Positions 1 to 57,394 of a DNA stretch of 64,000 bases are shown here, piece after piece (positions within the stretch are counted from its first letter, which is position 1; each line of letters begins with the position of its first letter). Position numbers and translations under genes: made by a program. The stretch is from an uncultured Eubacteriales bacterium (GTDB taxonomy: Bacteria; Bacillota; Clostridia; Christensenellales; Aristaeellaceae). The DNA is taken from positions 19,441 to 83,440 of the forward strand of contig CADAHU010000007.1 of assembly GCA_902787835.1 (NCBI GenBank), written 5' to 3'. The notes beneath the pieces were generated by a model. It was not told the origin of the DNA and searched no databases. It saw nothing but the letters and a program-made list of their open reading frames with translations.

Positions 1-629
1 CTGCGGGCCTCCCGGTCCCGGCTGCGCAGCATGCGCATATACACCGTGGCGCTGAGCTTGGCGTCCCGGCCTTTCTCGTCCTTCACATCGGGCAGGGGGC
101 GGTCCACGTCGCTGAGCATGGTATAAATATCATCGGGCGCCTGGGCGATCTCGCCCATCTGGGCCAGCAGCCTCTCCTGATCGGCGGACAGGGTATGGGG
201 CTGATCCCGCAGCAGATCCTCCAGAAAAACGCTGTACTCGCTGAAATCCGCATCCTCCCGGAGCGCCGTCAGCGTCTCCGCGGGCAGGGAAAGCAGCTCC
301 GGCCGCAGGAAGGCCCCGGCGCTGGCCGCTTTGGTGGCCAGGCTCTGGATGCGGGAGAGCAGGGTCTGGGCCGCGGTATCGCCGCCGTCCTCGTCCTGCC
401 GCATGCGGGCATAGGTAAACATGCGCTCCACGGCGCGCTGGATATCAAAATATCCGCGGATGGCGGCGCGGGGATCGGCCGCCACCTGCCCCTGGCACTG
501 CCGCCAGGCGTCGATGTCGCGCTCGGTTTTTTCATATAAGGCGTCAAAGGCCGGGGTTCCGGCCAGGATATCGTTCAGATTCCACATCCAGCGGGGATCC
601 ATCTCCCGCCGTTCCTTGGGCTGCTGCAT
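1..629 (-). CDS. pepF: oligoendopeptidase F (M3 family), N-terminal part; gene runs off the left edge
   Basis: My own minus-strand translation from ATG 627-629 (GGAGGA RBS complement at 641-646) gives MQQPKERREMDPRWMWNLNDILAGTPAFDALYEKTERDIDAW..., typical of PepF N-termini. Absent from the ORF track because it is edge-truncated. Confidence 0.75.
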   Translation of the reverse strand, partial: MQQPKERREMDPRWMWNLNDILAGTPAFDALYEKTERDIDAWRQCQGQVAADPRAAIRGYFDIQRAVERMFTYARMRQDEDGGDTAAQTLLSRIQSLATKAASAGAFLRPELLSLPAETLTALREDADFSEYSVFLEDLLRDQPHTLSADQERLLAQMGEIAQAPDDIYTMLSDVDRPLPDVKDEKGRDAKLSATVYMRMLRSRDREAR

Positions 630-779
630 GGCGTTTATCCTCCGTTCTCTGATGGGTTCAAACGAAAATGTAGCACTTGCCGGCCCGTATGTCAAGGGGC
701 GAACCGGCGCGAATCAAGGCGGATCGGCACACTCCGGGGCGAGCATCCCGTAAATATGCAGGTTTTGCGGGCCGCAGGC

Positions 780-808
780 TTGAAAAAAACGCTGCGATCG
801 GATATAAT
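780..808 (+). promoter_or_regulatory. sigma-70-type promoter of the DUF2461/phosphohexomutase/tkt gene string
   Basis: TTGAAA (780-785), 17-nt spacer, TATAAT (803-808), about 30 nt upstream of the GGGAGG RBS. Confidence 0.6.
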
Positions 809-839
809 TAAGGATGGCTGAAAGATAAGGGAGGAAACC

Positions 840-1526
840 ATGTTCCCAGGGTTCAATAACGATCTGCTCTCCTTCTATGCGGACATCCGCTTCAACAATG
901 ATAAAAGCTTTATGGATGCCCATCGGAAGGAATACTATCAGAAGGTGCGCGATCCATTTTACGCCTTCATCGACGCGCTGGCGCCCACCATGCTGAGGAT
1001 CAATGAGGAAATGGAGGTGCGGCCCCACAAATGCCTGAGCCGCATCAACCGCGACACCCGCTACACCAAGGATAAATCGCCCTACCGGGATCACCACTGG
1101 GTGGCCTTCCGCCAGGCGGCGCGGGACAAGGATGGCGCGCCCTTCTACTGGTTTGAGATCCGGCTGGAAGCGGTCAGCTGGGGCCTGGGCGTGTGGAACG
1201 AAAACCAATCGCTCTTCGACGCCCTGCGGCGGCGCATCCTCGCCCGGCCCGAAGAGGTGATGCAGGCGATGCGCACGGCCTGGGAGCACGGCTTTATCCA
1301 GGGCGGGCAGGTATGGAAAAAGAACATGCAGCCCCCGCCCACCGTGCCGGAAATGCTCAAGAGCGTATACCCGGCCCGCAGCCTGTACTTTGAAAAAACG
1401 GGCATCGATCCCGCCTGGATCTTTGACGAAGGCATTGTGAACCGCGTAGCGGAGGATTTTAAGGCCATCGCCCCTGTATGGCGGCTGCTGCGCGGGCTGA
1501 ACGATATCGAGGGAGGAAATCTATGA
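840..1526 (+). CDS. DUF2461 (TIGR02453) family protein
   Basis: 228-aa ORF with GGGAGG RBS. MFPGFNNDLLSFYADIRFNNDKSFMDAHRKEYY and RINRDTRYTKDKSPYRDH are characteristic of this family. Confidence 0.85.
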   Translation: MFPGFNNDLLSFYADIRFNNDKSFMDAHRKEYYQKVRDPFYAFIDALAPTMLRINEEMEVRPHKCLSRINRDTRYTKDKSPYRDHHWVAFRQAARDKDGAPFYWFEIRLEAVSWGLGVWNENQSLFDALRRRILARPEEVMQAMRTAWEHGFIQGGQVWKKNMQPPPTVPEMLKSVYPARSLYFEKTGIDPAWIFDEGIVNRVAEDFKAIAPVWRLLRGLNDIEGGNL

Positions 1527-3034
1527 TCAACTATCAAACGCTGAAGAGCGGCACCGACGTGCGCGGCTGCGCCATGGGCGAAAAGGCCGTGCTGACCAAT
1601 GAAGTGGCGCTGTGCATCGGCGGCGCGTTCATCACCTGGCTGACCGAAAAGACCGGCAAGCACGCCGAGCAGCTCACCGTGGCCATCGGCCGCGACAGCC
1701 GCATCACCGGGCCCGATCTGCTGGCCGCCTGCGCCGAGGGCATGGCCCGCTGCGGCGCGCAGGTATGGGATTTTGGCATGTGCACCACCCCGGCCATGTA
1801 CATGTGCCTGCTCACCGAGGGCTTCAAGCCCGACGCCTCGGTGATGGTGACCGCCTCCCACCACCCCTCGGACCGCAACGGCCTCAAGTTTTTCCTGCCC
1901 ACCGGCGGCATCAACAGCACCGATCTGAGCATGATCCTGAGCATCGCCCAGAGCACCGCGCCGGTGGCCTGCGACCATAAGCCCATCGAAAAGCGCGAAT
2001 TCCTGCCCGTATACAAGCAGCAGCTGATGGACCGGGTGCGCCGCGGCCTGGATACCGACGTGGCCTGCCCCCTGCTGGGCCTGCACGTGGTGGTGGACGC
2101 CGGCAACGGCGCGGGCGGCTTCTACGAGGAGATGCTGCGGGAGCTGGGCGCGTGGACCGAGGGCAGCCAGTTCCTGGAGCCCGACGGCCATTTTCCCAAC
2201 CATATCCCCAACCCGGAAAATCCCCAGGCCATGGAGAGCGTCAGCAAAGCGGTGCTGAACGCCGGGGCGGATCTGGGCCTGATCTTTGATACCGACTGCG
2301 ACCGCGCCGCCATCGTGGACAAGGCGGGGCGCGAAATCAACCGCAACCGGCTGATCGCCCTGATCAGCGCCATCCTGCTGGATAAGAAGCCCGGGGCCAC
2401 CATCGTGACCGACTCGGTGACTTCCTCCGGCCTGGCGCAGTTTATCGCCGAATGGGGCGGCGTGCATTACCGCTTCAAGCGCGGCTACCGCAACGTCATC
2501 GACGAGGCCATCCGCCTGAACGAGGCCGGCATCGATTGCCCCCTGGCCATTGAGACCAGCGGCCATGCTGCCCTGCGGGAAAACCACTGGCTGGACGACG
2601 GCATGTACCTGACCACCGTGCTGCTGGTGGAGGCCATGCGGCTGAAGCAGGAAGGCAAGGAGCTCAGCGACCTGCTGGAGGGCCTGCGCGAGCCTGTGGA
2701 GAGCGTGGAGCTGCGCCTGGGCATCCAGGCGGAGGACTTCCGCGAGGCCGGACGCCTGGCCATCGAAAAGGTGATGGATCACGCGGCCTTTGCCGAGGGC
2801 TGGCATATTGCCCCGGATAACCGCGAGGGCGTGCGCATCAACTTTGACCTGGAGGAAGGCCTGGATAACGGCTGGTTCCTGCTGCGGCTCAGCGTGCATG
2901 ATCCCGTGCTGCCCCTGAACGCCGAGAGCGACGTGCACGGCGGCGTGGAGGATATGCTCCGCAAGCTGCTGGCCGTGCTGGATGGCACGGAGAACATCGA
3001 TCTGACTCCCCTGAAGGCATACTTAAACAAATAA
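1523..3034 (+). CDS. alpha-D-phosphohexomutase (phosphoglucomutase/phosphomannomutase family)
   Basis: ATG 1523 follows GGGAGG and overlaps the upstream stop (ATGA). It has the phosphoserine loop TASHHPSDRNGLKF and the metal loop FDTDCDRAA. Confidence 0.9.
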   Translation: MINYQTLKSGTDVRGCAMGEKAVLTNEVALCIGGAFITWLTEKTGKHAEQLTVAIGRDSRITGPDLLAACAEGMARCGAQVWDFGMCTTPAMYMCLLTEGFKPDASVMVTASHHPSDRNGLKFFLPTGGINSTDLSMILSIAQSTAPVACDHKPIEKREFLPVYKQQLMDRVRRGLDTDVACPLLGLHVVVDAGNGAGGFYEEMLRELGAWTEGSQFLEPDGHFPNHIPNPENPQAMESVSKAVLNAGADLGLIFDTDCDRAAIVDKAGREINRNRLIALISAILLDKKPGATIVTDSVTSSGLAQFIAEWGGVHYRFKRGYRNVIDEAIRLNEAGIDCPLAIETSGHAALRENHWLDDGMYLTTVLLVEAMRLKQEGKELSDLLEGLREPVESVELRLGIQAEDFREAGRLAIEKVMDHAAFAEGWHIAPDNREGVRINFDLEEGLDNGWFLLRLSVHDPVLPLNAESDVHGGVEDMLRKLLAVLDGTENIDLTPLKAYLNK

Positions 3035-3054
3035 ATCATAAAGGAGCACAAACC

Positions 3055-5025
3055 ATGGATATCCAGCAAAAGACGATCAACACCATCCGCATCCTGTCCG
3101 CCGATATGGTGCAGAAGGCCAACAGCGGCCATCCCGGCGCGCCCATGGGCATGGCGGCCATGGCTTATGCCGTTTGGGCCGACGCCATGCAGCACAACCC
3201 CGCCGACCCCAAATGGCGCAACCGCGACCGCTTTGTGCTGTCCAACGGCCACGCCAGCGCCCTGATGTACAGCCTGCTGCACCTGTTTGGCTACGGGCTG
3301 ACCATGGATGATCTCAAGCAGTTCCGTCAGTGGGGCAGCAAGACCCCCGGCCATCCCGAGATCGAGACCGCGGGCGTGGAAACCACCACCGGTCCCCTGG
3401 GACAGGGTGTGGCCAACGCCGTGGGCTTCGCCATCGCCGAGACCATGCTGGCCGCCAAGTTCAACCGTCCCGATTTCCCCGTGGTGGATCACCGCGTATA
3501 CGCCTTCTGCGGCGACGGCTGCATGATGGAAGGCATTGCCAGCGAGGCCGCCTCCCTGGCCGGCACCCTCAAATTGGGCAAATTGACCCTGCTCTATGAT
3601 GACAACGACATCTCCATCGAGGGCAACACCGATATCGCCATGCGCGAGGACGTGGGCGCGCGCTTTGCCGCCTATGGCTGGCAGGTGCTGCATGTCGCCG
3701 ATGGCAACGATCCCCAGCAGGTGCTTTCCGCCATCGCGGAAGCCCGCCGGGACGACCGCCCCAGCCTGATCGTCTGCAAGACCATCATCGGCTACGGCTG
3801 CCCCGCCAAGCAGGGCACCAGCGGCGTGCATGGCGCGCCCCTGGGCGATGAAAATCTGCTGGCCACCAAGCGCACCCTGGGCATGCCCGAGGAATGCTTC
3901 CATGTGGATCAGGATGTGTACGACCACCTGAAGGACACCGCCGCCCGCGGCGCCCAGCGCGAGCAGGAGTGGAAGGATATGATGGCCCGTTACGCCCAGG
4001 CCTATCCCGAGCTGGCCCAGGAGTATGAGGACTGGTATGCCATGAAGCTGCCCGAGGGCCTGTGCGAGGATCCCGCGCTGTGGGCCTTCGAGGGCAAGAT
4101 CGCCACCCGCGCCACCAGCGGCACCATGATCAACCGCCTGGCGGCCAAGCTGCCCAACCTGGTGGGCGGCAGCGCCGACCTGGCCCCCTCCAACAACACC
4201 TACATCAAGGAAGGCGGCGATTACAGCGCCGAGAACCGCGGCGGCCGCAACCTGCACTTCGGCGTGCGTGAGCATGCCATGGCGGCCATCTGCAACGGCA
4301 TCGCCCTGCACGGCGGCCTGCGCGTATTCTGCGGCACCTTCTTCGTGTTCAGCGATTACATGAAGCACGCCATCCGCATGAGCGCCATCATGAAGCTGCC
4401 CGTCACCTACGTGCTGACCCACGATTCCATCGGCGTGGGCGAGGACGGCGCCACCCATGAGCCCATCGAGCATCTGGCCGGCCTGCGGGCCATCCCCGGC
4501 GTGCAGGTGTTCCGCCCCGCCGACGGCAAGGAGACCACCGCCGCCTGGCTGAGCGCCCTGACTGCCTGCGGCCCCACCTGCCTGGTGCTGACCCGTCAGG
4601 GCCTGCCCCAGTATGGCGAGCAGGGGACCGAAGCCTTTAAGGGCGGCTATGTGCTGGAGGACTGCCAGGGCACGCCCGACGTGCTGCTGATGGCCAGCGG
4701 CTCCGAAGTGGAGCAGTGCGTGGCCGCCAAAGGCCTGCTGGCCGGCGAGGGCATTCAGGCCCGCGTGATCTCCATGCCCTGCATGGAGCTGTACCTCAGG
4801 CAGGACGCAGCCTATCAGGAGTCCGTAATGCCCGCCGCCATCCGCGCCCGCGTGGCCGTGGAAGCCGGCGCCACCATGCCCTGGTACCGTTTCGTCGGTC
4901 TGGACGGCGCAGTGATCGGCCTGGATCACTTTGGCGCCTCCGCCCCCGCCGGTATCCTGTTCAAGGAGTATGGTTTCACCGCCGAGAACGTGGCGGCCAC
5001 GGCCAAGAAGGTGCTGGGAAAGTAA
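3055..5025 (+). CDS. tkt: transketolase
   Basis: 656 aa. N-terminus ...[20 protein letters not shown] and ThDP motif GDGCMMEGI match transketolases along the full length. Confidence 0.97.
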
Positions 5026-5045
5026 TCACAAAGAAGACAGTAAAT

Positions 5046-5077
5046 GATGGGGGCCGCACGGCCCCCATCTTATCCTT
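5046..5077 (+). terminator. probable intrinsic terminator after tkt
   Basis: 10-bp GC stem GATGGGGGCC (5046-5055) / GGCCCCCATC (5060-5069), followed by a weak T-rich tail TTATCCTT. Confidence 0.45.
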
Positions 5078-5100
5078 GATTAAAAAGGGAGTATTTGACC

Positions 5101-6507
5101 ATGTCCACACCGCAAATCCGCGATTTTAAGGGCAAGCGCGTACATATGATCGGCATCGGCGGCAGCAGCATGAGCGGCCTGGCCGGGATGCTGGTGCAGC
5201 AGGGCTATCACGTTACGGGCTCGGACAAGAGCCACAGCCATGCCGTGGAGCGGCTGGAGGCCCAGGGCGTTGCCATCGCCATCGGCCATGACGAAAAAAA
5301 CGTGCAGGGCGCCGACGTGCTGGTGTATTCCGCGGCCATCAAGCCCAATAACCCGGAGCGCGCCTGGGCCTTTGCCCACGGGATCCCGCAGATCGAGCGG
5401 GCGGAGCTGCTGGGCCAGGTGATGGAGGGGCACAGGGACGCGGTCTGCGTCAGCGGCACCCACGGCAAGACCACCACCACCTCCATGCTGTCCCAGATGC
5501 TGATGGACTGCGGTCTGGACCCCGCCGTGCACATCGGCGGTCGGCTGGACGCCCTGGGCGGCAGCACGCGCATCGGCAGCGAGCGGGTGTTTGTGGCCGA
5601 GGCCTGCGAGTACGCCGGAAGCTTTCTGCACATGCACCCCACCATCGCGGTGGTGCTGAACATCGAGGAGGACCATCTGGATTATTACGGCGATATTCAG
5701 CACATTGAGGAAGCGTTCTACAATTTCTGCTCCCTTCTGCCGGAGGACGGCCTGGTGGTGGGCTGGGGTGATGATCCCCGGGTGCAGAAGCTGCTCCGCC
5801 GTCTGGATCGCCGGCATGAGACCTTCGGCTTTACGGCGGACAGCGACTGGTATCCCGAGAACCTGGTAATGGGCGATCTGGGCCGGGCGCAGTTTGACGT
5901 AATGTATCGCGGAGAAAAGCGCTGCCACGCGGCGCTCAGCGTGCCCGGACGCATTCAGGTGGGCAACGCCCTGGCGGCGCTGGCCTGCGCTCACGCCCTG
6001 GGCGCGGATATGGAAAAGGCCGCCGATTCCCTGAATCATTTTATCGGCGCGCACCGGCGGTTTGAGCATACCGGGGATATCGACGGCGTGCACATGTACC
6101 ACGATTACGGCCATAACCCCACGGAGATGCGCAACGCCATCGCCATCGCCAAGGAGCAGCACGCCAATCATGTATGGGCGGTGATGCAGCCCCACACCTA
6201 CAGCCGGGTCAAAACGCTGTTTGACAGCTACCTGACCTGCACGGAGGCGGCGGATTACACGCTGGTCACCGATATCTGCGCCGCCCGGGAGGTTGACCCC
6301 GGGGACATCAACAGCCAGATGCTGGTGGACGGCATGCGCGCCCATGGCGTGGACGCCGTGCTGACGCCCTCCTTTGATGACACCGAGGCTTACCTGCGCG
6401 CCCATTGGCAGCCCGGCGATCTGGTGCTCACCATGGGCTGCGGCGATATCAACCTGCTGAACGAGCAGATGCAGCAGCACGGGGACACGCCCAAAGCGCA
6501 GGCGTAA
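5101..6507 (+). CDS. murC: UDP-N-acetylmuramate--L-alanine ligase
   Basis: GIGGSSMSGLA nucleotide-binding fold and GTHGKTTTTSML P-loop. ATG 5101 sits 9 nt after AGGGAG; the track start at 5095 is a TTG too close to the RBS. Confidence 0.95.
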   Translation: MSTPQIRDFKGKRVHMIGIGGSSMSGLAGMLVQQGYHVTGSDKSHSHAVERLEAQGVAIAIGHDEKNVQGADVLVYSAAIKPNNPERAWAFAHGIPQIERAELLGQVMEGHRDAVCVSGTHGKTTTTSMLSQMLMDCGLDPAVHIGGRLDALGGSTRIGSERVFVAEACEYAGSFLHMHPTIAVVLNIEEDHLDYYGDIQHIEEAFYNFCSLLPEDGLVVGWGDDPRVQKLLRRLDRRHETFGFTADSDWYPENLVMGDLGRAQFDVMYRGEKRCHAALSVPGRIQVGNALAALACAHALGADMEKAADSLNHFIGAHRRFEHTGDIDGVHMYHDYGHNPTEMRNAIAIAKEQHANHVWAVMQPHTYSRVKTLFDSYLTCTEAADYTLVTDICAAREVDPGDINSQMLVDGMRAHGVDAVLTPSFDDTEAYLRAHWQPGDLVLTMGCGDINLLNEQMQQHGDTPKAQA

Positions 6508-6514
6508 CAGCATT

Positions 6515-6912
6515 TGCAAACCGGGATTTGTGGGGAAGGGACGAACGGGAGCGTTCCTTCTTGAAGCCCAAGAAGGAACCGAAGAAAGCTGCGTTGTCGC
6601 CGTAAATGCTGCTGGCTGCACGCCAACTGGCTTTAACGCCCATCCCCGTTCCCTGGCAGCACGGCTCCGCCGTGCACGCGGTGCGCAAAGCGCACCGCTG
6701 AACAAAGAGAGAAATCCGGAAAAATGAGCTCGTTCATTTTTCCGGATTTCTCTCTTTGTTCTTTTGCCAGGGAACTCGCTTGGCGACCGCAACCAAACTG
6801 GCGGAAACAAGTTTGTTCGTCGATTCAAGTTGGTTCGCCCGCTGAGGTCCAGGAGGCGAAGTCTCCTGGCGCAGAGCTCGAGGCCGCGGAGGCCTCGAAC
6901 GTTTTCCTGTCA
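6515..6912 (+). repeat. hairpin-mosaic intergenic repeat, copy A (core 6541-6840)
   Basis: Alignable with 13722-14196 and, reverse-complemented, with 32861-33228. Contains hairpins at 6553-6579, 6659-6675, 6680-6696, 6700-6761 (perfect 28 bp), 6849-6869 and 6879-6897, plus a long-range helix 6648-6658/6765-6775. Confidence 0.9.
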
Positions 6913-6932: not shown

Positions 6933-7679
6933 TCATCCCTGCCGTCCCAGTATGCGCCGCAGGAAATCCTGGGTGCGGGGCTGCTGGGGATTGCTGAGCA
7001 GCTGGGCGGGCGGCCCCTGCTCCAGAATGACGCCATCGCACATGTACACCACGCGGGTGCTCACGTCCCGGGCAAAGGCCATCTCATGGGTGACAACCAG
7101 CATGGTCATGCCGCTTTCCGCCAGGCTGCGCATAACGGAGAGCACCTCGCCCACCATCTCAGGATCCAGGGCGCTGGTGGGCTCATCAAAGAGCAGCACC
7201 TCCGGATCCATGGCCATGGCGCGGGCAATGGCCACGCGCTGCTTCTGACCGCCGGAGATCTGGCGGGGCTTGGCGTTTACGTAGGGCGCCATACCCACCT
7301 TTTCCAGGTATTGCATGGCGTGGGCCTTGGCTTCCTCCCGGCTGCGCTTGAGTACCTTGATCTGCCCCACCATGCAGTTGTCCAGCACGGTCATATTGTT
7401 GAACAGATTAAAGGACTGGAACACCATGCCCACCCGGGCGCGATACTTGGCCGCCTTGGTGCCGGGAGCGAGCACGTTCTTACCATTATAAATGATCTCG
7501 CCTGCGTTGGGCGTCTCCAGCAGATTGATGCAGCGCAGCAGGGTGGATTTGCCGGAGCCGGACGCGCCGATGATGCTGATCACATCGCCCTTGTCCACGG
7601 TAAAATCGATATCCCGCAGCACGGCGTTTGTGCCAAAGGATTTGGAAAGGTGGTTGATCTGCAGAATATGCTCCGCCAT
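6933..7679 (-). CDS. amino-acid ABC transporter ATP-binding protein (GlnQ-like)
   Basis: Walker [10 protein letters not shown], signature [14 protein letters not shown], Walker [15 protein letters not shown] 7679 follows GGAAAGGA and lies next to the permease stop; the maximal ORF extends to 7700. Confidence 0.93.
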
Positions 7680-7680
7680 A

Positions 7681-8529
7681 TTAATTGCCATCCTTTCCAT
7701 CTTGCTCGTATTCCTTGCTGCGCTCGTCGAAGGGCGTGCCCCGATCGGGGTGGTTATAGGTACCCGCCGTCATGACCAACTGATCCTCCTGCACCAGCTC
7801 ATAGCTGCTGGAGCCGTCCAGTCTCCGCTCCAGCCAGCGCAGCAGGAAGGATGCCAGCAGCGTCATGGTCAGGTAGCCCACCATCTCCACGGTGGCCGAG
7901 GGGAAATACAGGTAGCTGGCGCCCACAGTGGCGCGGTGCGCGGCAAAGAACTCCGGGAAGCCGATGATGAACATCACCGAGGTATCCTTCACGTTGATGA
8001 TAAAGTTGTTGCCGATCTGCGGCATGATATTGCGCAGCGCCTGGGGCAGGATCACGCTGGTCATGGTCTGCACGTGGGTCATGCCAATGGCCTTTGCGCC
8101 CTCGGTTTGGCCGGGATCCACCGATATGATGCCGCCGCGGACGGATTCCGCCATGTACGCGCCGGTATTAATGGATACCACCACGATGGCTGCCAGCCAG
8201 ATGGAGGTGAACTTGACCGCGTTATCGGTAAAATAGGGCAGGCCGTAATAGAGGAAAACCGCCTGCAGCACCATGGGCGTGCCGCGGAAAACCTCCACAT
8301 ACACGCGGATGATGATGCGCACCACCTTCAGGAAAAACCGCTTGACGGGATGGGTGCCCGGGCCATGGGGAATGGTATTGAGCACGCCGCATACGAAGCC
8401 GATCAGGCAGCCCAGCAGCGTGCCCACCAGCGCCAGGATCAGCGTATTCTGGATGCCGCTCAGGTACGCGCCGCCATATTTTCCCCAAAGCTTGGCGATA
8501 TCCGCCCCAAGCTGCGCAAACTTGCTCAT
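7681..8529 (-). CDS. amino-acid ABC transporter permease (His/Glu/Gln/Arg family)
   Basis: 282 aa, multi-TM, with the conserved loop [31 protein letters not shown]. It has a hydrophilic C-terminal extension of about 45 aa. Confidence 0.9.
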
Positions 8530-8622: not shown

Positions 8623-9477
8623 TCAGTCCATCAGGGGCTGGATCTCGATGGCATGGGCCATCAGGGCGTTGAAATCATCCGCGGTCATGGTAGCCAGCAC
8701 GCTGTCGATGGCCTCGCGCAGCACGGTGTTGCCCTTCATCATGGATACGCCGATGTTCACATTCTCAGCGCGCTCTTCCTCGGTGAACTGGAAGTCGCCG
8801 TCGGTGCCGGAGAAGTCCAGGATCACCATATCGGGATAGGCGGCCACAGCGCCCTGGGCGGTGGGCATATCGGTGCACACAAAGTCCACAGCGCCGGTCT
8901 CCAGCGCCATCAGCATGGCGGGAGCGGTCTCGGCGGCGGTCATCACATTGGCGCCGGTGATCTGGGGCAGGCAGGTATCATACCAGATGGTGGCGATCTG
9001 CGCGGTGCAGCTGCCGCCGGCCAGGTCGGCCAGGCTCTGGGCGTTCTCATAGGCGCTGCCGGCGCGGGTCAGGCACACGATGGTGGCGTAGAAGTAGGGG
9101 CCGGCAAAATCCACCTGCTCGGCGCGCTCGGCGGTCATGGACTGGCCGGCGATGACGGCGTCGAAGGTACCGGTCTGCACGCCGGGCACCAGGGAATCCC
9201 AGTCGGACTGGATCACTTCCAGCTGCCAGCCGTTGGCCTCGCAGATGCGCTGGGCGATCATCACATCGTAGCCGTTGGCGTAGGAGCCGGGCACGTTGGC
9301 GATGGGCACGGCGCCGTTGCTGTCGTCAGACTGGGTCCAGTTATAGGGAGCGTAGGCGCATTCCATGGCGATGGTCAGCACGCCATCCTCCACGCCGCTG
9401 GGTACGTCGGCCAGGGCAGCGGTCAGGGACAGGGTCATCATCAGGGCGATCAGTACGGCGAACATTCTTCTCATCAT
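8623..9477 (-). CDS. amino-acid ABC transporter substrate-binding protein (family 3 SBP), secreted
   Basis: Signal peptide MMRRMFAVLIALMMTLSLTAALA, then a family-3 SBP pattern (GYDVMIAQRI..., FDAVIAGQSMTAERAEQVDF). GGAGG lies 8 nt upstream. Confidence 0.9.
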   Translation of the reverse strand: MMRRMFAVLIALMMTLSLTAALADVPSGVEDGVLTIAMECAYAPYNWTQSDDSNGAVPIANVPGSYANGYDVMIAQRICEANGWQLEVIQSDWDSLVPGVQTGTFDAVIAGQSMTAERAEQVDFAGPYFYATIVCLTRAGSAYENAQSLADLAGGSCTAQIATIWYDTCLPQITGANVMTAAETAPAMLMALETGAVDFVCTDMPTAQGAVAAYPDMVILDFSGTDGDFQFTEEERAENVNIGVSMMKGNTVLREAIDSVLATMTADDFNALMAHAIEIQPLMD

Positions 9478-9500: not shown

Positions 9501-9733
9501 AAGAAAAGCGGTGAATCGGCCTGCGCCATTCACCGCCTGCATCCTTTTAGATCGGCTGATTTTGAATAGCGCTCCATGGCCTTGTACCATGACAGTCAAG
9601 CGGATGTTTTCCCCTTGCCCAACGCGATTGCCCTGCCGTTGCTTTCGCATTTCGGCGGCTTCCCCTTTCGCGTGCGATCCTCGCCCTGGCAGGGGCTCCC
9701 GCGCGCTACTCTTGTCGGCCGCGCCTCTATTCC
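9501..9733 (-). promoter_or_regulatory. lysine riboswitch (L-box) with terminator, leader of the ABC importer operon
   Basis: The minus strand reads GGAAUAGAGGCGC..CAAGAGUA..GAAAGGGGAAGCCGCCGAA..GACUGUCA..CUAUUC, matching the conserved L-box blocks of B. subtilis lysC as I recall them. Aptamer is about 9564-9733. Terminator GCGGTGAAT/ATTCACCGC lies at 9508-9536 with a U-tract, just before the RBS. Confidence 0.85.
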
Positions 9734-9761
9734 ATCCAGGTCCTGCCTGAATGTTGAGGTG

Positions 9762-12243: not shown

Positions 12244-13035
12244 ATGCAATTTGGCATGCCTTTTCTGCTGGAAAACAGCAGCATAGAAGACGCGGCCCGG
12301 CTGGGCGCGGAGCTGAAGCTGGATTTTGTGGAGCTGAACATGAGCTTTCCGCTGTGCGGCCTGGACAATATGAGCGCGGCGGAGCTGACTGACCTGCAGG
12401 AGAAATACGGCGTTTATTTTACCTTCCACCTGCACGAGGAAATGGCCCCCTGCACCTTCTCCAAATACGTACGGGAGGCCTGGCTGCGGGAGGCCCGGGA
12501 GGCCATCACCCTGGCCCGGCTGGCGCATATGCCCGCCGTCAATCTGCATTGGCTGCGGGGCATTTATGTAACGCTGCCCGACCATGTGGATCATCTGTTC
12601 AGCCGCTATCGGAAGGCGTACGAGCAGAACGTGCTCGCCTTCCGTTCCATCTGTGAGGAGGCCAGCCAGGGCCAGGTGCGGGTCTGCGTGGAGAACACCG
12701 AGCGTCCCTGGGAGCCCTTCCAGACCGATACCATCGAGCTGCTGCTGGAATCTGATGCCTTCGGCCTGACGCTGGACGTGGGGCATGAAAAGGTGGCGGG
12801 CTACAAGGACGCCTGGTTTTACGAAAAGCATCCCGGGAGGCTGAACCATATGCACCTGCACGACGCCAGGCCCAACCAATGTCATATGCCCCTGGGCGCG
12901 GGCGAATTGGATATCGCGTCGCTGGTGCACAGGGCGGACACAGCGAACGCCCGGGCGGTGATCGAGATCAAAACGGAGGCTGCCCTGCGCAGCAGCGTGC
13001 AGTATCTGCGGGAAAGAGGGCTGTACCATGCTTGA
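12244..13035 (+). CDS. sugar phosphate isomerase/epimerase (xylose-isomerase-like TIM barrel)
   Basis: Family pattern: ...FVELNM..., HLHEE, VCVEN, LDVGHE, HMHLHD. ATG 12244 is 8 nt after GGAGG. An extended -10 TGGTATAAT lies at 12208-12216. Confidence 0.75.
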   Translation: MQFGMPFLLENSSIEDAARLGAELKLDFVELNMSFPLCGLDNMSAAELTDLQEKYGVYFTFHLHEEMAPCTFSKYVREAWLREAREAITLARLAHMPAVNLHWLRGIYVTLPDHVDHLFSRYRKAYEQNVLAFRSICEEASQGQVRVCVENTERPWEPFQTDTIELLLESDAFGLTLDVGHEKVAGYKDAWFYEKHPGRLNHMHLHDARPNQCHMPLGAGELDIASLVHRADTANARAVIEIKTEAALRSSVQYLRERGLYHA

Positions 13036-13705
13036 TATCCGCGGGCGGCTGCTGGCCCTGGAGGATCCGGCCAACGCTGATCTTCAGTTTAAATTGGCCC
13101 CGGGGCTGCGGCGGGAGGACATGCTGGGCATCCGCTTTCCCGCGCTGCGGCAGCTGGCAAAGGAGATCCAAAAATCCCCGGAGTCTGCGGCTTTTCTGGC
13201 CGATCTGCCCCATCGATACTTTGATGAGAACAACCTGCACGCCGTGCTGATCAGCGGTATCCGGGATCTGGACGCCTGCGTGGCTGCGCTGGACGCCTTT
13301 CTGCCCCACGTGGATAACTGGTGTACCTGCGATACGCTGATCCCCACCTGCTTCAAAAAGCACACCGGCGAAGCGCTGCCGCACATCCGCCGGTGGATGG
13401 GAAGCGCCCATACCTATACCTGCCGGTTTGGCATTGGCGCGCTGATGCGGTTTTATCTGGACGGGGATTTTGACCCGGAATACCTCTCCTGGGTGGCCGA
13501 GATCCGCTCGGAGGAATACTACATCAACATGATGATTGCCTGGTATTTTGCCACCGCCCTGGCCAAGCAGTATGACGCCGCCCTGCCCCTGATCCAATCC
13601 CGCGCCCTGGCCTCCTGGACGCACAACAAGGCCATCCAGAAGGCTATCGAAAGCTTCCGCGTAACCCCGGAACACAAGGAAGCGCTGCGAAAGCTGAAGG
13701 TATAA
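13028..13705 (+). CDS. DNA alkylation repair protein (AlkD-like HEAT-repeat family)
   Basis: 225 aa. ...FPALRQLAKEI..., NWCTCD, YYINMMIAWYFATAL and SWTHNKAIQKAIES are typical of the family. It overlaps the upstream gene by 8 nt. Confidence 0.8.
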   Translation: MLDIRGRLLALEDPANADLQFKLAPGLRREDMLGIRFPALRQLAKEIQKSPESAAFLADLPHRYFDENNLHAVLISGIRDLDACVAALDAFLPHVDNWCTCDTLIPTCFKKHTGEALPHIRRWMGSAHTYTCRFGIGALMRFYLDGDFDPEYLSWVAEIRSEEYYINMMIAWYFATALAKQYDAALPLIQSRALASWTHNKAIQKAIESFRVTPEHKEALRKLKV

Positions 13706-13721: not shown

Positions 13722-14196
13722 TGCAAATTGGGATTTGACGGGGAGAGGGGTACGAACGGGGGCGTTCCTTCTTGGAGCCCAAGAAGGAACCGAAGAAGGC
13801 TGCGTTTGTCGCCGTAAATGCTGCGGGCTTTTCCGCCAACAGGCTTTAACGCCTGCCACCGTTCCCGGGCAGCACGGCTACGCCGTGCGCGCGGTGCGCA
13901 AAGCACACCGCTGAACAAAGAGAAAATCCCTGAAAAATGAACAAGCTCATTTTTCAGGGATTTTCCCTTTGTTCTTTTGCCCGGGAACTCGCTTGGCGAC
14001 TTAACCAAGCTAGCGGAAACGAGTTTGTTTTCCAATTCAAGTAGTTCGCCCCGTTGGGAGTCCAGAGGGCCCGCAGCGTCCGAAAAATGATCCAGTGGAT
14101 CATTTTTAGCGAGGGCGGGCCGGAAGGCCCCGGACCCGAAGGTCCTTTGGCGCAGAGCTCGAGGCCGCGGAGGCCTCGCCAAATCTCAATTTGCGC
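13722..14196 (+). repeat. hairpin-mosaic intergenic repeat, copy B (core 13752-14051) with terminal inverted repeats
   Basis: Same core as copy A. TIRs are GCAAATTGGGATTTG (13723-13737) and, reverse-complemented, GCAAATTGAGATTTG (14180-14194). Extra hairpins lie at 14083-14107, 14117-14130 and 14132-14145. Confidence 0.9.
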
Positions 14197-14212: not shown

Positions 14213-15178
14213 TCAATACCCGATTTCCTTCAGAATCCGATCCAGCAGCCGCGCGGTCATCAGGGAGAATTCCCGGGTAACGCGCGGTTTCTCCTCGCCC
14301 AGGATGCAGCGGCCCAGCTGCTCCACCTCCAGGGTGTAATTATCCCGGGCAAACACCGTTTTGACCTGGGTTTCGCCGTCGTGGGTCACCGTATAGGCGA
14401 TCTCGCCGGACTGGTTGAACCGCACGTCGGATACGATGCTTCCCCGGGTGCCGTGCACGCGGAAGCGATCCACCCGCGCATTGGGCAGCGCCATGCCGCA
14501 GTCCAGGCTGGCGAACGCGCCGTTGGCATAGGTCAGCACCGCGGAGGTGAACAAATCCACGCCGCGGTCGGAGAACTGCGCCGACGCGCGCACGTCCTGC
14601 GGCTCCCCCATCATCCACAGCGTCATGCTGGCGGCATAGCAGCCCAGATCGTACAGCGCGCCGCCATATTTTTCCTTATACATGCGGATATCGGTATCGG
14701 GCGTGCGTCCGCCGATGAAGGCCGACTCAAAATAGCAGATATCGCCCACAGCGCCGGCGTCCAGCTCCTGCTTGACCGCATCCATAAAGGGGTTATGCAG
14801 GTAGGCAAAGGCCTCCATCAGGTGCACGCCGCAGCGGTCCGCGGCCTCAACCATCCGCCGCGCCTCAGCCTCGCTGCCCGCCAGCGGCTTTTCGCACAGC
14901 ACATGCTTGCCGGCCTCCATGGCGCGGATGCTCCAGGGCGCGTGCAGGTCATTGGGCAGCGGGATATACACCGCCTCCACCTGGGGATCGTTCAGCAGCT
15001 CCTCATAGCTGCCGTAGGCCTTCTCAAAGCCGAAATCCTGCTGGAATTGCCTTGCCTTCTCCAAACTGCGTCCCGCAATGGCGTACAGCTGGCAGTTTTC
15101 GGCCTTCTGCATGCCGGGAATGGTGGCCCAGCGCGCGATGCCCGCCGTGCCCAATACGCCCCAACGAATCTTTCTCAT
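14213..15178 (-). CDS. Gfo/Idh/MocA family oxidoreductase
   Basis: MRKIRWGVLGTAGIA Rossmann N-terminus and the EKPLA motif. ATG 15178 follows GGGAGGAGGA. Confidence 0.9.
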   Translation of the reverse strand: MRKIRWGVLGTAGIARWATIPGMQKAENCQLYAIAGRSLEKARQFQQDFGFEKAYGSYEELLNDPQVEAVYIPLPNDLHAPWSIRAMEAGKHVLCEKPLAGSEAEARRMVEAADRCGVHLMEAFAYLHNPFMDAVKQELDAGAVGDICYFESAFIGGRTPDTDIRMYKEKYGGALYDLGCYAASMTLWMMGEPQDVRASAQFSDRGVDLFTSAVLTYANGAFASLDCGMALPNARVDRFRVHGTRGSIVSDVRFNQSGEIAYTVTHDGETQVKTVFARDNYTLEVEQLGRCILGEEKPRVTREFSLMTARLLDRILKEIGY

Positions 15179-15238
15179 GGCTCCTCCTCCCATCGTAAAC
15201 AAAGGACCATACCGGTTTTCCCGGCATGGCCATCATCA

Positions 15239-30143: not shown

Positions 30144-30800
30144 ATGGACGAAAGAATTGTTTACCGCTGCCATTACCGCGGGCAGCTGTCCAGGCCCCTG
30201 GACGCGGCGGCGTCATCCGCCTGCGCCGAAGCGGCGCGGCAGCTGATCCGGGAGGGCCAGCTTATGACCGCGGCGCTGTACGCCTATGGGCCGCAGCTTT
30301 TCCTTTACTATGAATCGCTGGGCGAAGTCCTGCCGCCGGAAAGCTTTATGTCCCCGCTGCATCCCTTTTTATCCCCCTGGCCGCAAAAGGAGGAAACGCG
30401 CGACTGGGCAAAAATGTACCATATTTATTGGCACTGCGAGCCCAGGAACGCCGAGGACTGGCGGCGGGATCCCCTGCCCCAGCGCCGCCGCGGGCGCATC
30501 GCCTATCTGAAGCACGATACCCTGTTTGAATATGTGTACCATCATTTTGCCATCGTGCAGGAGGGGCTGCTGAAGGGCGACCGCTACATGTCCATCGCCC
30601 TGCACGAGGACGTGCTGTTCAGCTATTTTGAGGAGCCGCGCTCCGCTGTAAACATCCGCCGGGAGGATGGGGAATCCCAGGCCATCCGCGGCTGGATGGC
30701 GGCGGATCCAGACAGCCACTTTATCCATTTGCCCGGCAGCGAGGGGCAGAACTTCCTCCTGCTGCCGGAGATCTTCGCCCTGGGCCAGGAGGATGCGTAA
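30144..30800 (+). CDS. hypothetical protein, two tandem rhamnose-mutarotase-like (Dabb/DUF718-like) halves suspected
   Basis: Both halves carry a ...LF.YYE/LFSYFEE... strand and a W-containing helix, as in RhaM-type mutarotases. The assignment is by motif memory only. Confidence 0.35.
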   Translation: MDERIVYRCHYRGQLSRPLDAAASSACAEAARQLIREGQLMTAALYAYGPQLFLYYESLGEVLPPESFMSPLHPFLSPWPQKEETRDWAKMYHIYWHCEPRNAEDWRRDPLPQRRRGRIAYLKHDTLFEYVYHHFAIVQEGLLKGDRYMSIALHEDVLFSYFEEPRSAVNIRREDGESQAIRGWMAADPDSHFIHLPGSEGQNFLLLPEIFALGQEDA

Positions 30801-32857
30801 TGCGTTTGCTGGAGCTTTTGAACAATCCGCCCCGGGAGTATACCCCCATCCCCTTCTGGTTTCTGAACGGCGATCTGCGCCGGGAGGAGATCAAACGGCA
30901 GCTGCGGGATTTTTGCGATCACGGCGTTTACGGCGTGGTGCTCCATCCCCGCATCGGCCTGCCGCCGCGCATCGGCTATCTTTCCGAAAGCTTTTTCGGC
31001 TATCTGCGCGTGGCCATCGAGACAGCGGCGGAGCTGGATATGCGCGTGGTGCTCTATGACGAGGGCATGTACCCCTCCGGCTCGGCCTCCGGGCTGGTGG
31101 TGCGGGATCACCCCGAGCTGGCCAGCCGCGGGCTCTGCCATGTGGAAACGCCCGCGCCGGGGGATACGGTGCTGTGCCCCGTGGCGGGCGGATACCTGGT
31201 GGAGCGGTTCAGCGGCGGCAGGCTGCGCGGCCTGCACTACGGCGAGGATGACGGCGAGCCCAACCAGCCCCTGAGCGCCGATATTCTGAATCCCGAGGCG
31301 GTAAACCGGTTTATCCAACTGACCCACGAGGCCTATTACCAGCATTTTGCGCCGCACTTTGGCAAAACCATTATTGGCTTTTTCACCGACGAGCCCAGCA
31401 TACTGGGGCGCAACGTGCGGGATATGCAGCCCTGGACCCGGGGCTTTGCCGATATGTTCTGCCAGGCGGGCGGGAACCCGGCGGGGCTTGCCGGGCTGTT
31501 TGACGGTACGGAGAACGCCGATACCGCCCTCTACCGCCGGCTGATGCTGGAGCGGGAGAGCGAGGTCTATTACGCCAGTCTGTCCCGCTGGTGCCAGGCG
31601 CACGGCATCGCCCTGATGGGGCATCCCCACCAGAGCGATGATATCGAGTTTGAGCGGCATTTCCATGTACCGGGCCAGGATCTGGTGTTCCGCTGGGTCT
31701 CCCCCGAGACCGGCGGCACCGTGGGCATGGACAGCACCATGGGCAAATGCAGCGCCGATATGGCGCGGCATATGGGCGCGCGGCGCAATTCCAACGAGTG
31801 CTTCGGTGCCTGCAACCGCGGCGGCAATCCCTGGCATTTTACCGGGGAGGATATGAAGTGGTTCATCGACTGGCTGGCAGTGCGGGGCGTCAATCTGTTT
31901 ATCCCCCACGCCTTCTATTACAGCCTGACCGGCAAGCGCAGCGCCGAGCGGCCGCCGGACGTGGGCCCCGGCAGCATCTGGTGGCCCCATTATCAGCTGT
32001 GGGCAGGCTACATGACCCGGCTTTCCTGCCTGATGGCGGAGACTGAATACCAGGCCGATATCGCTCTGCTGTGCCGCAACCGGGAGCTGCATGCCGAAGC
32101 TGCCGCGCCGCTTTTTGAAGGCCAGCGCGCCTTTGAATACCTGCCGGAGAGCCTGTGGGCCGACTGCAGGGAGGAAAACGGACGTCTGATCTGCGGCAGC
32201 CGCAGCTATGGCGCGGTGGTCGGCGCGGAGACGCTGTTCCCCACGGTATCCCATGATCCGCAAACCGTCGCGCCGGACTGTCTCTGCGATCCGGCCCAGC
32301 CCGATCTGCGCATCGCCGCCCTGAAATACCAGGGCCAGCCCTGCTGGCTGCTGGTCAACGAGGGCGAAAACGATCTGCAGGCCCAAATCACGCTGCCCGT
32401 TCACGAGCCGCTGGGGCAATATGATCTCTGGCAGAACACCACCTGCGCCTTGCCCGGCCGAAATACGGAGCAGGGCACGCAGTTTCGCCTCTCCCTGCCC
32501 CGGCGGGGAAGCCTGCTGGTCTTTGCCGCCGGGGAGGCGCTGCCCCAGCCGGAAAGCCTGCCGGCGCTGGAGAATATCCCCTTCGCCCTGATCGGCCAGG
32601 ATCCCAAGGCCTGCACCAAAACCTATGCCGCCACGCTGCCCGCCTATGATACCGATGTGATGGTCTCCGTAAACGCGGAGGAGATGGCAGAGCTCTTTGT
32701 CAACGGCCAGCCCTGCGGCGTCGCCTTCTGGGCGCCCCAGCGCTTCCGCATCCCCCATGCCCTCACCGGCGGCCGGGAAGCGGAGCTGCGCCTGGTTATC
32801 ACCGGCAGCCTGGCCAACCGCTACGGGAACCAGCCCGTTCCCTATGGGCTGATCTGA
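30800..32857 (+). CDS. putative glycoside hydrolase (uncharacterised family)
   Basis: 685 aa. Its start overlaps the upstream stop (TAATG). The N-terminal motif TPIPFWFLNGDL...EEIKRQL and a C-terminal beta-sandwich-like region resemble GH106/GH2-sugar-binding-type enzymes. Confidence 0.55.
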   Translation: MRLLELLNNPPREYTPIPFWFLNGDLRREEIKRQLRDFCDHGVYGVVLHPRIGLPPRIGYLSESFFGYLRVAIETAAELDMRVVLYDEGMYPSGSASGLVVRDHPELASRGLCHVETPAPGDTVLCPVAGGYLVERFSGGRLRGLHYGEDDGEPNQPLSADILNPEAVNRFIQLTHEAYYQHFAPHFGKTIIGFFTDEPSILGRNVRDMQPWTRGFADMFCQAGGNPAGLAGLFDGTENADTALYRRLMLERESEVYYASLSRWCQAHGIALMGHPHQSDDIEFERHFHVPGQDLVFRWVSPETGGTVGMDSTMGKCSADMARHMGARRNSNECFGACNRGGNPWHFTGEDMKWFIDWLAVRGVNLFIPHAFYYSLTGKRSAERPPDVGPGSIWWPHYQLWAGYMTRLSCLMAETEYQADIALLCRNRELHAEAAAPLFEGQRAFEYLPESLWADCREENGRLICGSRSYGAVVGAETLFPTVSHDPQTVAPDCLCDPAQPDLRIAALKYQGQPCWLLVNEGENDLQAQITLPVHEPLGQYDLWQNTTCALPGRNTEQGTQFRLSLPRRGSLLVFAAGEALPQPESLPALENIPFALIGQDPKACTKTYAATLPAYDTDVMVSVNAEEMAELFVNGQPCGVAFWAPQRFRIPHALTGGREAELRLVITGSLANRYGNQPVPYGLI

Positions 32858-32860
32858 ACC

Positions 32861-33228
32861 GAAGGATGGGATACGTTACTTTCTTCCAGAAGAAAGTAAC
32901 AAAGAAGCAGCCGGCGAACCGACTTGAATCGGCAAGCAGACTTGCTTCCGCCAGTTTGGTTACGGTCGCCAAGCAAGTTCCCGGACAACAGGAACACAGA
33001 CAAAAACCGTCAAAAGCAAGCTCGCTTGTTTTTGACGGTTTTTGTCTGTGTTCAGCGGTGCGCTTCGCGCACCGCGCGGCCAGCGAAGCTGGCCTTGTAC
33101 GGGAACGGCGGCAGGCGTAAAACCCGGTTGGCGGAAAAGCCCGCAGCATTTACGGCAACAAACGCAGCCCTCTTCGGTTCCTTCTCGGGCTCCGAGAAGG
33201 AACGCCCCCGTCCGTTTTCTCCTCTCGA
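32861..33228 (-). repeat. hairpin-mosaic intergenic repeat, copy C (inverted; core 32911-33216)
   Basis: Its reverse complement aligns with the cores of copies A and B. It fills the whole gap between the two stop codons. An additional 12-bp hairpin lies at 32875-32900. Confidence 0.9.
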
Positions 33229-34062
33229 TTACTCATCCCAGGCGTTGCTCAGATCGGCAAACTGCTGCAGATCCAGCGCCTCGCCGCGGATATTCTCCGG
33301 CAGACCGGCCCGGGCGAGCCAATCCGCCGCCTGATCGCGATCCAGATGGAAGGCGGAAATCAGGTTGTTGCACAGCGTTTTGCGGCGCAGGGCAAACGCG
33401 GCGTTGACCACCTTGAAAAACCGCGCCTCATCCGCCACCGATACGGCGGGCCGTTCCCGCCAGGGCATGCACAGGAAGGCGGAATCCACCTTGGGCGGCG
33501 GCGTAAAGCAGGCCGCCTCCACGATGCGGGCCAGCCTGGGCTGGGTATAATACTGGGCGCGCACCGCCAGGGGGCCGTATTCCGGGGTGGAAGGCGCTGC
33601 CAGCACCCGCTGGGCGGCCTCCTTCTGTACCATCAGATTGATGCTGCGGATGGGCAGATTGCCGCGCAGCAGCAGCGTCATCAGATCGGTGGTCAGGTAA
33701 TAGGGAATATTGGCCACCACATGAAAGGGCGATTTGCCCGCCATGATCTCCGGGATATTGACCCGCAGGATATCGCCCTGGATCAGGGTGAAGTTCTCCG
33801 CCCGCTCCATCACCACCCGCAGGATGGGGATCAGATCTCGGTCCAGCTCCACCGCCGTGACCGTTTTGCACCGGGATGCCAGCAGCCGCGTCATATCGCC
33901 GCCGCCGGGGCCCACCTCCAGGATATGATCCTCCGGCCCCACGCCGCTGTCATCGATCAGCGTTTCCAGCAGCGCCGCGTTGGTCAAAAAATTCTGCCCC
34001 AGGCTGTGCTTGGCCTGAATACCGCCCGGTCCGGAACGTCCCTTTTTATAATTTGGCTTCAC
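33229..34062 (-). CDS. rsmA: 16S rRNA (adenine1518/1519-N6)-dimethyltransferase
   Basis: KHSLGQNFLTN... and the SAM motif ILEVGPGGGDMT. Confidence 0.95.
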   Translation of the reverse strand: MKPNYKKGRSGPGGIQAKHSLGQNFLTNAALLETLIDDSGVGPEDHILEVGPGGGDMTRLLASRCKTVTAVELDRDLIPILRVVMERAENFTLIQGDILRVNIPEIMAGKSPFHVVANIPYYLTTDLMTLLLRGNLPIRSINLMVQKEAAQRVLAAPSTPEYGPLAVRAQYYTQPRLARIVEAACFTPPPKVDSAFLCMPWRERPAVSVADEARFFKVVNAAFALRRKTLCNNLISAFHLDRDQAADWLARAGLPENIRGEALDLQQFADLSNAWDE

Positions 34063-57129: not shown

Positions 57130-57135
57130 CCGCTC

Positions 57136-57394
57136 AGTTGCGATGACTGGGAAACGTGCTGCGATGCAGCGCCTTGCAGAGAGCCCCGGCAGGTGGAAGC
57201 GGGGCAGGCGAACGCGCAGGAATTCCTCCCGGAAGCAGCGGCCTGAAGGATGCGTCTGGTAGGGTCCGCCGGGTTCCCTCCGTTAGCGGGGATGGGCAAT
57301 GATGGTTGCCCTGTAAGGCTTTCCCAGGGAAGCAAAATTGAGGTGGTACCGCGGTTTTTATCCGCCCTCTGCAAGGCAGGGGGCGTTTTTGTTT
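57136..57394 (+). promoter_or_regulatory. T-box leader (tRNA-sensing riboswitch) with terminator
   Basis: Stem I base UGCGAUGA...GCA, AG bulge AGAGAG, distal loop GCAGGUGGAAG. T-box sequence AAAUUGAGGUGGUACCGCGG at 57335-57354. Terminator CGCCCTCTG/CAGGGGGCG at 57363-57385 plus a T-run. Confidence 0.88.

Follow-up and report, generated by a model that had tools for sequence, protein, structure and literature searches.

Three convergent gene junctions in the 64-kb stretch of DNA analysed here, referred to as the window (63% G+C), carry copies of one hairpin-rich sequence, and the question raised by this locus is what kind of element that sequence represents. A preliminary description, made from the sequence letters, had proposed a structured non-coding RNA, a bidirectional terminator or insulator cassette, or a REP/MITE-like mobile element. 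The element is real, it is absent from Rfam, and it is a new family of a familiar class. The copies probably represent a family of interspersed repeats of the MITE, BOX, BIME or ERIC kind that is mosaic, non-coding and specific to one lineage, and the family most likely spreads as parasitic DNA. Proteobacteria and streptococci are well-known hosts of such mosaic repeats; for the uncultured, high-G+C Clostridia of the gut, whose genomes are available mainly as fragmented metagenome bins, there are to our knowledge hardly any descriptions. The interest of the finding is modest, and no new kind of system emerges from it.

Copies in the window and their gene context

The nhmmer search of the window with a profile of the core (~305 nt) returned exactly three full matches: copy B at 13752-14056 (E = 6.8e-108), copy A at 6541-6844 (E = 5e-105) and copy C at 33215-32908 on the minus strand (E = 2.5e-103). 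The other profile matches in the window involved self-complementary central hairpins only. The preliminary description had placed three copies with a shared core of about 300 bp at these junctions, each of them convergent; the profile search and the gene context agree with this, and ~305 nt of the core could be aligned with E-values of 1e-103 to 1e-108. Copy A as a whole element occupies 6516-6912 on the plus strand, between murC (5095-6507, plus strand) and the gene of a GlnQ-like ABC ATPase (6933-7700, minus strand); it has a left terminal repeat, and its right one is not significant. Copy B (13723-14194, plus strand) is a complete element whose ends are terminal inverted repeats, and it is situated between a gene coding for a PF08713 DNA_alkylation protein (13028-13705, plus strand) and the gene of a Gfo/Idh/MocA oxidoreductase (14213-15202, minus strand). 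Copy C (about 32858-33232, with the core at 32906-33215, minus strand) lies between the gene of a 685-aa putative glycosidase (30800-32857, plus strand) and rsmA (33229-34062, minus strand), and its terminal repeats are not clear. The junctions are therefore convergent in 3/3 cases.

The homology between A, B and C ends at the borders of the element, and the neighbouring genes are unrelated. This abrupt loss of similarity and the lack of any relation between the flanks show that the copies are not segmental duplications, a possibility for which the preliminary description had allowed. The same observations bear on the idea that the likeness arose by chance among ordinary terminator regions. 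The shared convergent-junction location is the only feature that speaks for duplication or for chance, whereas E-values reaching 1e-108, similarity confined by the element borders, unrelated flanking genes and five further sites with yet other flanks speak against both, and this explanation is regarded as refuted.

The preference for gene ends extends beyond the window. Gene 3' ends were found at 13/13 of the flanks observed, an outcome that would have a probability of 0.5^13 for randomly placed sides. Six of these flanks belong to A, B and C, which contribute two each, five are the left sides of L012-L016, and the other two are formed by rplQ in L020 and by the AI-2E transporter gene in L016. 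The ATPase gene that abuts copy A is the last gene of a three-gene amino-acid ABC transporter operon (ORFs 8623-9477, 7681-8529 and 6933-7700, minus strand), upstream of which a lysine riboswitch is located (9559-9737, minus strand, 105 bits).

Terminal repeats and internal modules

The complete element starts with a terminal repeat, to which the 5' unit (93 nt, with hairpin H1) is joined once or several times; then come a four-way domain closed by the long-range helix P, a 3' domain, variable right-end hairpins and the second terminal repeat. It measures about 470-510 bp, and the copies range from 350 to 510 bp, those in the window from 350 to 470 bp. In the complete form, the ends are 21-36-nt terminal inverted repeats (GCAAATTGGGATTTGRCGGGG...). 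The ends of copy B had been missed in the preliminary description: a 21-nt repeat at 13723-13743 (plus strand, GCAAATTGGGATTTGACGGGG) is matched at 86% by the repeat at 14174-14194 (minus strand, reverse complement GCAAATTGAGATTTGGCGAGG). The left end of B resembles the right repeats of other copies out to about 13758, and its right repeat is ~17 nt shorter than in the strains L017 and L020. In these two strains the right repeat is about 36 nt long (GCAAATTGAGATTTGGCGG(T/G)G(A/G)ATGGGGAACGTTCG) and agrees with the left end of B (GCAAATTGGGATTTGACGGGGAGAGGGGTACGAACG), and L019 provides an independent right end, also with a repeat of about 36 nt. Terminal inverted repeats are thus present in B, L017, L019 and L020, and the right end of A and the left end of C are not significant. 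The left terminal inverted-repeat module of A (GCAAACCGGGATTTGTGGGGAAGGGACGAACG, 6516-6547, plus strand) was recognised by local alignment to the left end of B, with a score of 32 against a shuffle maximum of 21 (0/500), and the left terminal repeat was also found in L012, L013 and L016. It is missing or marginal in C, L014, L015 and at the right end of A; when remnants were sought in C, at the right end of A and in L015, only the right end of C gave a marginal inner-repeat remnant (GGATGGGATACGTT, p = 0.01).

In the copies devoid of clear terminal repeats, the core begins 0-14 nt past the stop codon of the flanking gene. Such a short distance is seen on the rsmA side of C (33229-33245) and next to a rhamnose mutarotase-like gene in L015 (about 2100), and the stop of the glycosidase gene (window 32855-32870) is adjoined by the weak inner-repeat remnant of C. 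The ends of the element may overlap gene ends, for which statistical support was not obtained; for the same reason, the idea that the element ends provide the stop codons of rsmA and rhaM was dropped.

The best-conserved part of the element is the internal 5' unit rather than the ends. In copy A, this 93-nt unit (ACGGGAGCG ... CGCCAACTGGCTTTAAC) occupies 6545-6637 on the plus strand, and it is the module that is tandemly repeated in other strains. At the rsmA junction, the number of units is 1 in copy C of the window, 2 in L021 and at least 3 in L018, and in L014 a decayed 5' unit stands ahead of an intact one. Conservation of the 5' unit above that of the ends is unusual for a transposase-driven MITE, and a host or RNA-level function could constrain it. 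The unit contains H1 (GTTCCTTCTTG/CAAGAAGGAAC; 6553-6579 in A, plus strand, with the arms 6553-6563 and 6569-6579), which is 99% paired and includes one compensatory pair (UA in 8 sequences, CG in 3).

In the four-way domain, P surrounds an AT-rich palindrome of 28-30 bp and two hairpins that are short and GC-rich. In A, P pairs 6648-6658 with 6765-6775 (plus strand) and encloses H3 (6659-6675), H4 (6678-6698) and the central palindrome H5 (6700-6761), the last being a perfect, AT-rich palindrome of 28 bp that is terminator-like on both strands and in which 12/29 pairs are changed on both sides. In B, P and the enclosed hairpins extend over 13861-13988 on the plus strand (13861-13871 with 13978-13988), and H5 (13913-13974, plus strand) has 28 bp and is 96% self-complementary; in C, the arms of P lie at 32977-32988 and 33095-33106 (92%), and H5 (32992-33053) has 30 bp and reaches 97%. 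The coordinates proposed earlier for H1 in A and for P in both A and B are exact inverted repeats, and P shows the T:A to G:C swap between these two copies. H5, which had been listed as one hairpin among three, exists and proves to be a 28-30-bp near-perfect palindrome. Its G+C content is ~36% in a genome of 63% G+C, and it is 96-100% self-complementary despite only ~70% sequence conservation between copies.

Behind the four-way domain of A follow the 3' domain with nested hairpins (TCGCTTGGCGAC ... GATTCAAGTTGGTTCGCC; 6776-6845, plus strand) and the variable right-end hairpins (6849-6898, plus strand), namely CCAGGAG/CTCCTGG at 6849-6869 and TCGAGGCC/GGCCTCGA at 6878-6898. Copy B has an extra hairpin (AAAAATGATCCA/TGGATCATTTTT, 14083-14107) flanked by an A-run and a T-run, which does not occur in A or C and is common to B and L020. 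Copy C carries a right-end hairpin of its own (GTTACTTTCTTC/GAAGAAAGTAAC, 32875-32900) in place of the right-end modules of A and B. The interior and right-end hairpins have been exchanged or lost between copies, and which of the two versions of H3 a copy carries is independent of its other parts. In L013 (1-60, reverse strand), the interior past the 5' arm of P is GGGGCTGTTGCAC...GTGCAGCAGCCCTTTTTTT, a plain intrinsic terminator, after which come ATTCAAG and the contig end.

Two further features of the sequence deserve mention. The tetranucleotide GAAC/GTTC is enriched 4-6 times in the element (6543-6897, 13754-14044 and 32916-33200) and forms closing pairs of H1, P and H5; GAACGTTC is present in the inner terminal repeat as well. 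This enrichment may reflect a recognition motif or the trace of a common hairpin origin. Within the 5' unit, the variable base of GCTGC-N-GG equals that of CCAAC-N-GG in 7/13 units (T/T, A/A or G/G), compared with about 2.9 expected; the N positions are 6610/6625 in A and 13822/13838 in B, corresponding to columns 123 and about 139 of the alignment. Both segments carry C-N-GGCTTT as a short direct repeat, and either one could alternatively pair with the same downstream GCCTGC. The matching bases could result from gene conversion or from switch-like alternative pairing.

Folding and strand symmetry

No conserved ORF was found in the element, and the small ORFs inside it differ from copy to copy. 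Already in its most conserved stretch copy A has 1-nt gaps, and indels disrupt every reading frame, as the preliminary description had concluded when it found no protein conserved between the copies. The concatenated six-frame translations of B and C scored nothing against the protein collection. The claim that the element corresponds to no known RNA family stood as well, and its novelty was not removed by Rfam: Rfam 15 recognised in the window, at the gathering threshold, only the lysine riboswitch and a T-box leader, both outside the element. Permissive scans of A, B and L021 gave only animal and plant miRNA-precursor models on the long central hairpin, far below threshold. A ribozyme, a tRNA-like RNA, a retron, an attC site, a group II intron fragment and an IscB/TnpB guide RNA were all set aside: Rfam gave no match for the RNA classes, and no gene for a reverse transcriptase, integrase or nuclease lies beside any copy. 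The T-box leader (57134-57372, plus strand) scored 100 bits against a gathering score of 93.

Compared with shuffled sequences, the fold of copy A is very stable on both strands (z = -9.5 on the plus strand and -11.1 on the minus strand), and the fold of C reaches z = -12.6. The minimum-free-energy structure of A shows P around three hairpins, H3, H4 and H5, in line with the fold drawn in the preliminary description. Covariation was assessed in a 12-sequence alignment with the RNAalifold structure of five full copies, in which 95% of the cells are paired. Pairs with changes on both sides numbered 18, compared with 10.3 +/- 2.1 in shuffles (0/500) and with 0-3 when the partners were slid, and this supports the paired substitutions that had been noted in the stems. 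The hairpin pairing is maintained, and the compensatory changes are real. Of the pairs changed on both sides, 12/18 are located in H5.

Near-perfect palindromes of 28-30 bp can stay perfect through templated correction of quasi-palindromes in replication, which makes covariation in H5 a weak argument for RNA-level selection. The perfection of the central palindrome may have its origin in selection on pairing, in templated correction, or in both. In the local hairpins, G-U pairs on the plus strand (14) equal A-C pairs, which are G-U on the minus strand (14). These equal counts, together with equally strong folding on both strands, indicate palindromes at the DNA level or elements read in both directions, and not an RNA gene of one strand. 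On the plus strand, G-U outnumbers A-C by 21 to 3 in the three long-range helices, a count biased by the fact that these helices came from plus-strand folding; the excess hints at an RNA fold of the plus strand. In addition, one pair (columns 59/108) runs through G-C, G-U and A-U on the plus strand. The unpaired-looking blocks, which the preliminary description had reported as almost identical between copies, are indeed conserved, but some of them are mutually complementary, as in the case of GTCGCCG and TGGCGAC.

These observations have to be weighed against the explanation that the element is a host-selected structured RNA, in the form of a 3'-UTR module, a small RNA processed from a 3' UTR or a dedicated bidirectional terminator/insulator. 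According to it, protein or RNA would be bound by the four-way domain together with the conserved 5' unit, and multiple copies would exist as many operons use the element. The very stable folds (z from -9.5 to -12.6) and the real compensatory changes are consistent with such an RNA, but the wobble counts of the hairpins are equal on both strands; the 21:3 excess in the long-range helices and the G-C, G-U, A-U series at columns 59/108 point towards the plus strand. The most conserved segments lie outside the stems, the internal 5' unit unusually so, and L013 resembles a 5' unit followed by a plain terminator, both of which would suit a functional RNA, whereas the terminal repeats, the variation in unit number, the module swaps and the assembly breaks are traits of repeats and not of RNA genes. 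The element is always found close behind a stop codon, which is automatic at convergent junctions. Moreover, Rfam gave no match, a consensus scan of A, B and C for a sigma-70-like promoter found none, a relative has dapB 39 bp after murC and no element at this place, and one exact two-anchor pattern, a narrow test, had no true match in 185,579 species genomes. On balance, a host-selected structured RNA is considered unlikely. Wider conservation, a promoter and, in the hairpins, one-strand G-U pairing, which would mark a strand-specific structured RNA, were not found, and no specific support was obtained for a stand-alone non-coding RNA because the covariation is strand-symmetric, Rfam has no match, no promoter was seen and nothing was found outside the lineage.

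The terminator proposed in the preliminary description is compatible with the data as a property of the element, since H5 scores as a terminator and the flanks are gene 3' ends throughout. In the consensus scan, H5 was terminator-like on either strand of A and B and on a single strand of C; a stem-loop with a predicted T-run on both strands, placed at gene 3' ends, thus characterises A and B, and C on one strand. When transcribed, the central palindrome probably stops or stabilises transcripts from both directions. Read as the 3' end of either flanking gene, it would present a stem between an A-rich and a T-rich arm, alike on both strands, by which the transcript would be terminated or stabilised. 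H5 shares the A-rich 5' arm, the T-rich 3' arm and the location between convergent genes with bidirectional intrinsic terminators, but its stem of 28-30 bp with ~36% G+C is far longer and more AT-rich than that of ordinary terminators, and it is embedded in a 300-nt conserved repeat. If two-way termination by the palindrome is true, the element would be a case of terminators carried by selfish DNA.

A related possibility is that a mobile terminator/insulator cassette has been taken up by the host and that the RNA transcribed from its conserved 5' unit and four-way domain has a function of its own, such as protein binding or processing by RNase where convergent operons end, in which case the repeat behaviour would serve to spread the function. 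In a variant of this possibility, the two mutually exclusive C-N-GGC pairings in the 5' unit would act as a switch. Uptake of this kind seems rather unlikely.

Dispersal, rearrangements and related repeat families

Outside the window, a pattern taken from the most conserved stretch revealed five further sites (L012-L016) in one unrelated metagenome, each with a different upstream gene. Nine short-read contigs (L012-L016, L017, L019, L022 and L023) stop inside the element, L019 and L020 imply additional copies, and at least nine or ten distinct sites were counted over the metagenomes. The contig ends and the number of sites establish that the repeat is dispersed and present in many copies. The element is small, non-coding and free of a transposase gene (350-510 bp), and its dispersed copies (3 in 64 kb, 5 sites in one metagenome, 9 contig ends) are as numerous as is typical of MITEs.

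The searches for the element in other organisms returned no copy. The two-anchor pattern GCCGTAAATGCTGN{152,182}GCTTGGCGAC (23 bases), applied to one genome each of 185,579 species, gave no true match; its two matches equal the chance expectation and come from alphaproteobacterial MAGs, of which L001 was read and has the match in a MoxR-like coding region. BLASTN of B in distant mode against plasmids and phages gave nothing, as did three scans of viral contigs with core and terminal-repeat patterns, and the core profile found no element in 21 kb of the related species. A concatenated query of RsmA, the PF08713 protein and the oxidoreductase brought back only fused proteins of similar length and no close orthologues. 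Within these searches, the repeat is restricted to a single uncultured lineage of Clostridia.

Several features together argue for a new MITE/BOX/BIME-like mosaic family: the element has terminal repeats and a core that codes for no protein, folds very stably, occurs in many copies at gene ends, is limited to one lineage and goes along with genome plasticity. Such features have been described for bacterial MITEs (PMC3184786). The MITEs Correia/NEMIS, ERIC, Nezha and Chunjie resemble the element in having terminal repeats and many copies and no transposase gene, and also in their very stable folds, their location at gene 3' ends, the occasional overlap with gene ends and the contribution to genome plasticity; the Chunjie repeats have 21 bp, as the repeats of B have 21 nt (Delihas 2011, PMC3184786). 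In contrast to MITEs, no target duplication was seen at B or L020, both of which are rearranged, no partner IS is present in the window, the length of 350-510 bp is at or over the upper size range, and the interior is better conserved than the ends. The search for a target-site duplication showed no direct repeat flanking B or L020, both with recombinant or rearranged flanks, and the search of the window for a transposase or IS sharing the ends found none, the terminal repeat occurring there only at A and B.

The pneumococcal BOX elements (boxA-boxB(n)-boxC) are likewise non-coding, interspersed, modular and restricted to one species group (PMC3049150). The internal module of BOX is variable in number, being absent or present in several copies, as the 5' unit here varies from 1 to at least 3, and SPRITE has an unusually long, terminator-like duplex followed by a T-rich tract, comparable with the central palindrome (Croucher et al. 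2011, PMC3049150). BOX, SPRITE and the present element have extensive predicted stem-loops in common and, by analogy, may share co-transcription with neighbouring genes (PMC3049150). The host is unrelated (a 63% G+C Clostridia lineage versus pneumococcus with 39.5% G+C), and the sequences are presumably unrelated as well. Furthermore, the present element is larger and includes a four-way domain, and BOX makes target duplications, whereas none was seen at the rearranged B and L020.

BIMEs are mosaics of REP palindromic units and linker motifs, extragenic and located at operon ends, and in this they resemble the element; they consist of a single ~35-nt unit whose orientation alternates, with a link to RAYT, whereas the element consists of unlike hairpins with terminal repeats around the whole. 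A REP/BIME-type array, the hairpins of which would be moved as single-stranded DNA by a RAYT-type (IS200/IS605-like Y1) transposase and not by a DDE enzyme acting on the terminal repeats, has to be considered. The mosaic of several short GC-rich hairpins with a long palindrome, the pairing that is symmetric between the strands, the gene-3'-end location, the 4-6-fold enrichment of GAAC/GTTC at the base of H1, P and H5, and the lack of a visible target-site duplication at B and L020, which is expected of Y1 transposition, would all fit such an array. However, its units should be copies of one 20-40-nt alternating palindrome, and H1, H3, H4 and H5 differ in sequence and length, having only GAAC/GTTC at their bases in common; moreover, the long terminal inverted repeats of the complete element are not a feature of REP/BIME arrays or of IS200/IS605 derivatives. 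This explanation appears quite improbable.

The favoured reading, a MITE/BOX-like mosaic repeat, accords with the REP/MITE-like element of the preliminary description, and it is preferred because of the terminal repeats, the dispersed copies that break assemblies, the modular variation between strains, the breakpoints at the element and the occurrence in one lineage. A trans-acting transposase or recombinase would have spread the copies to many gene-end spacers, where they may persist because insertion between convergent genes is harmless. Later, the copies would have been reshaped by recombination, slippage of units and deletion, and the dispersed copies could act as substrates of homologous recombination that rearrange the chromosome.

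Variation between strains and species was traced in variants of the window loci obtained via 90%-identity protein clusters. In strains of the same species A, B and C are present in all, and a related species has another gene order at murC; none of these loci offered a clean empty site. This related species, whose MurC is 85% identical, is collinear with the window over 1-6489 and breaks at the start of copy A (window about 6508; L003 11398); there, dapB lies 39 bp after murC, and the element is absent. From the oxidoreductase gene through the whole element to window 13724, L020 matches the window at 95.6% identity; past this point it has the rplQ terminator and not the PF08713 gene. The left half of the L020 copy diverges from B much more than the right half, as would be the case in a recombinant between two copies. 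L019 agrees with the window over the PF08713 flank and for ~27 nt into the terminal repeat, after which a different copy follows in opposite orientation. The arrangement in L023 is that of the window. The rearranged L020 and L019, set against the window-form L023, indicate that the copies serve as recombination substrates. L019 was also considered as an inverton, i.e., a site-specific invertible segment; this was rejected, as its interior is another copy and not B flipped, and there is no promoter.

An interspersed mosaic repeat family of this kind has practical effects. Short-read assemblies break at its copies, synteny breakpoints and rearrangements at the strain level are marked by them, and it alters the 3' ends of the housekeeping genes murC, rsmA and rplQ; annotation of the family would help binning, strain typing and terminator prediction in the lineage. 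With regard to the murC locus, the amino-acid ABC operon is missing at the matching place in the related species, and dapB and dapA come after murC there. Proteins similar to the MurC of the window come from MAGs labelled 'Clostridia bacterium'.
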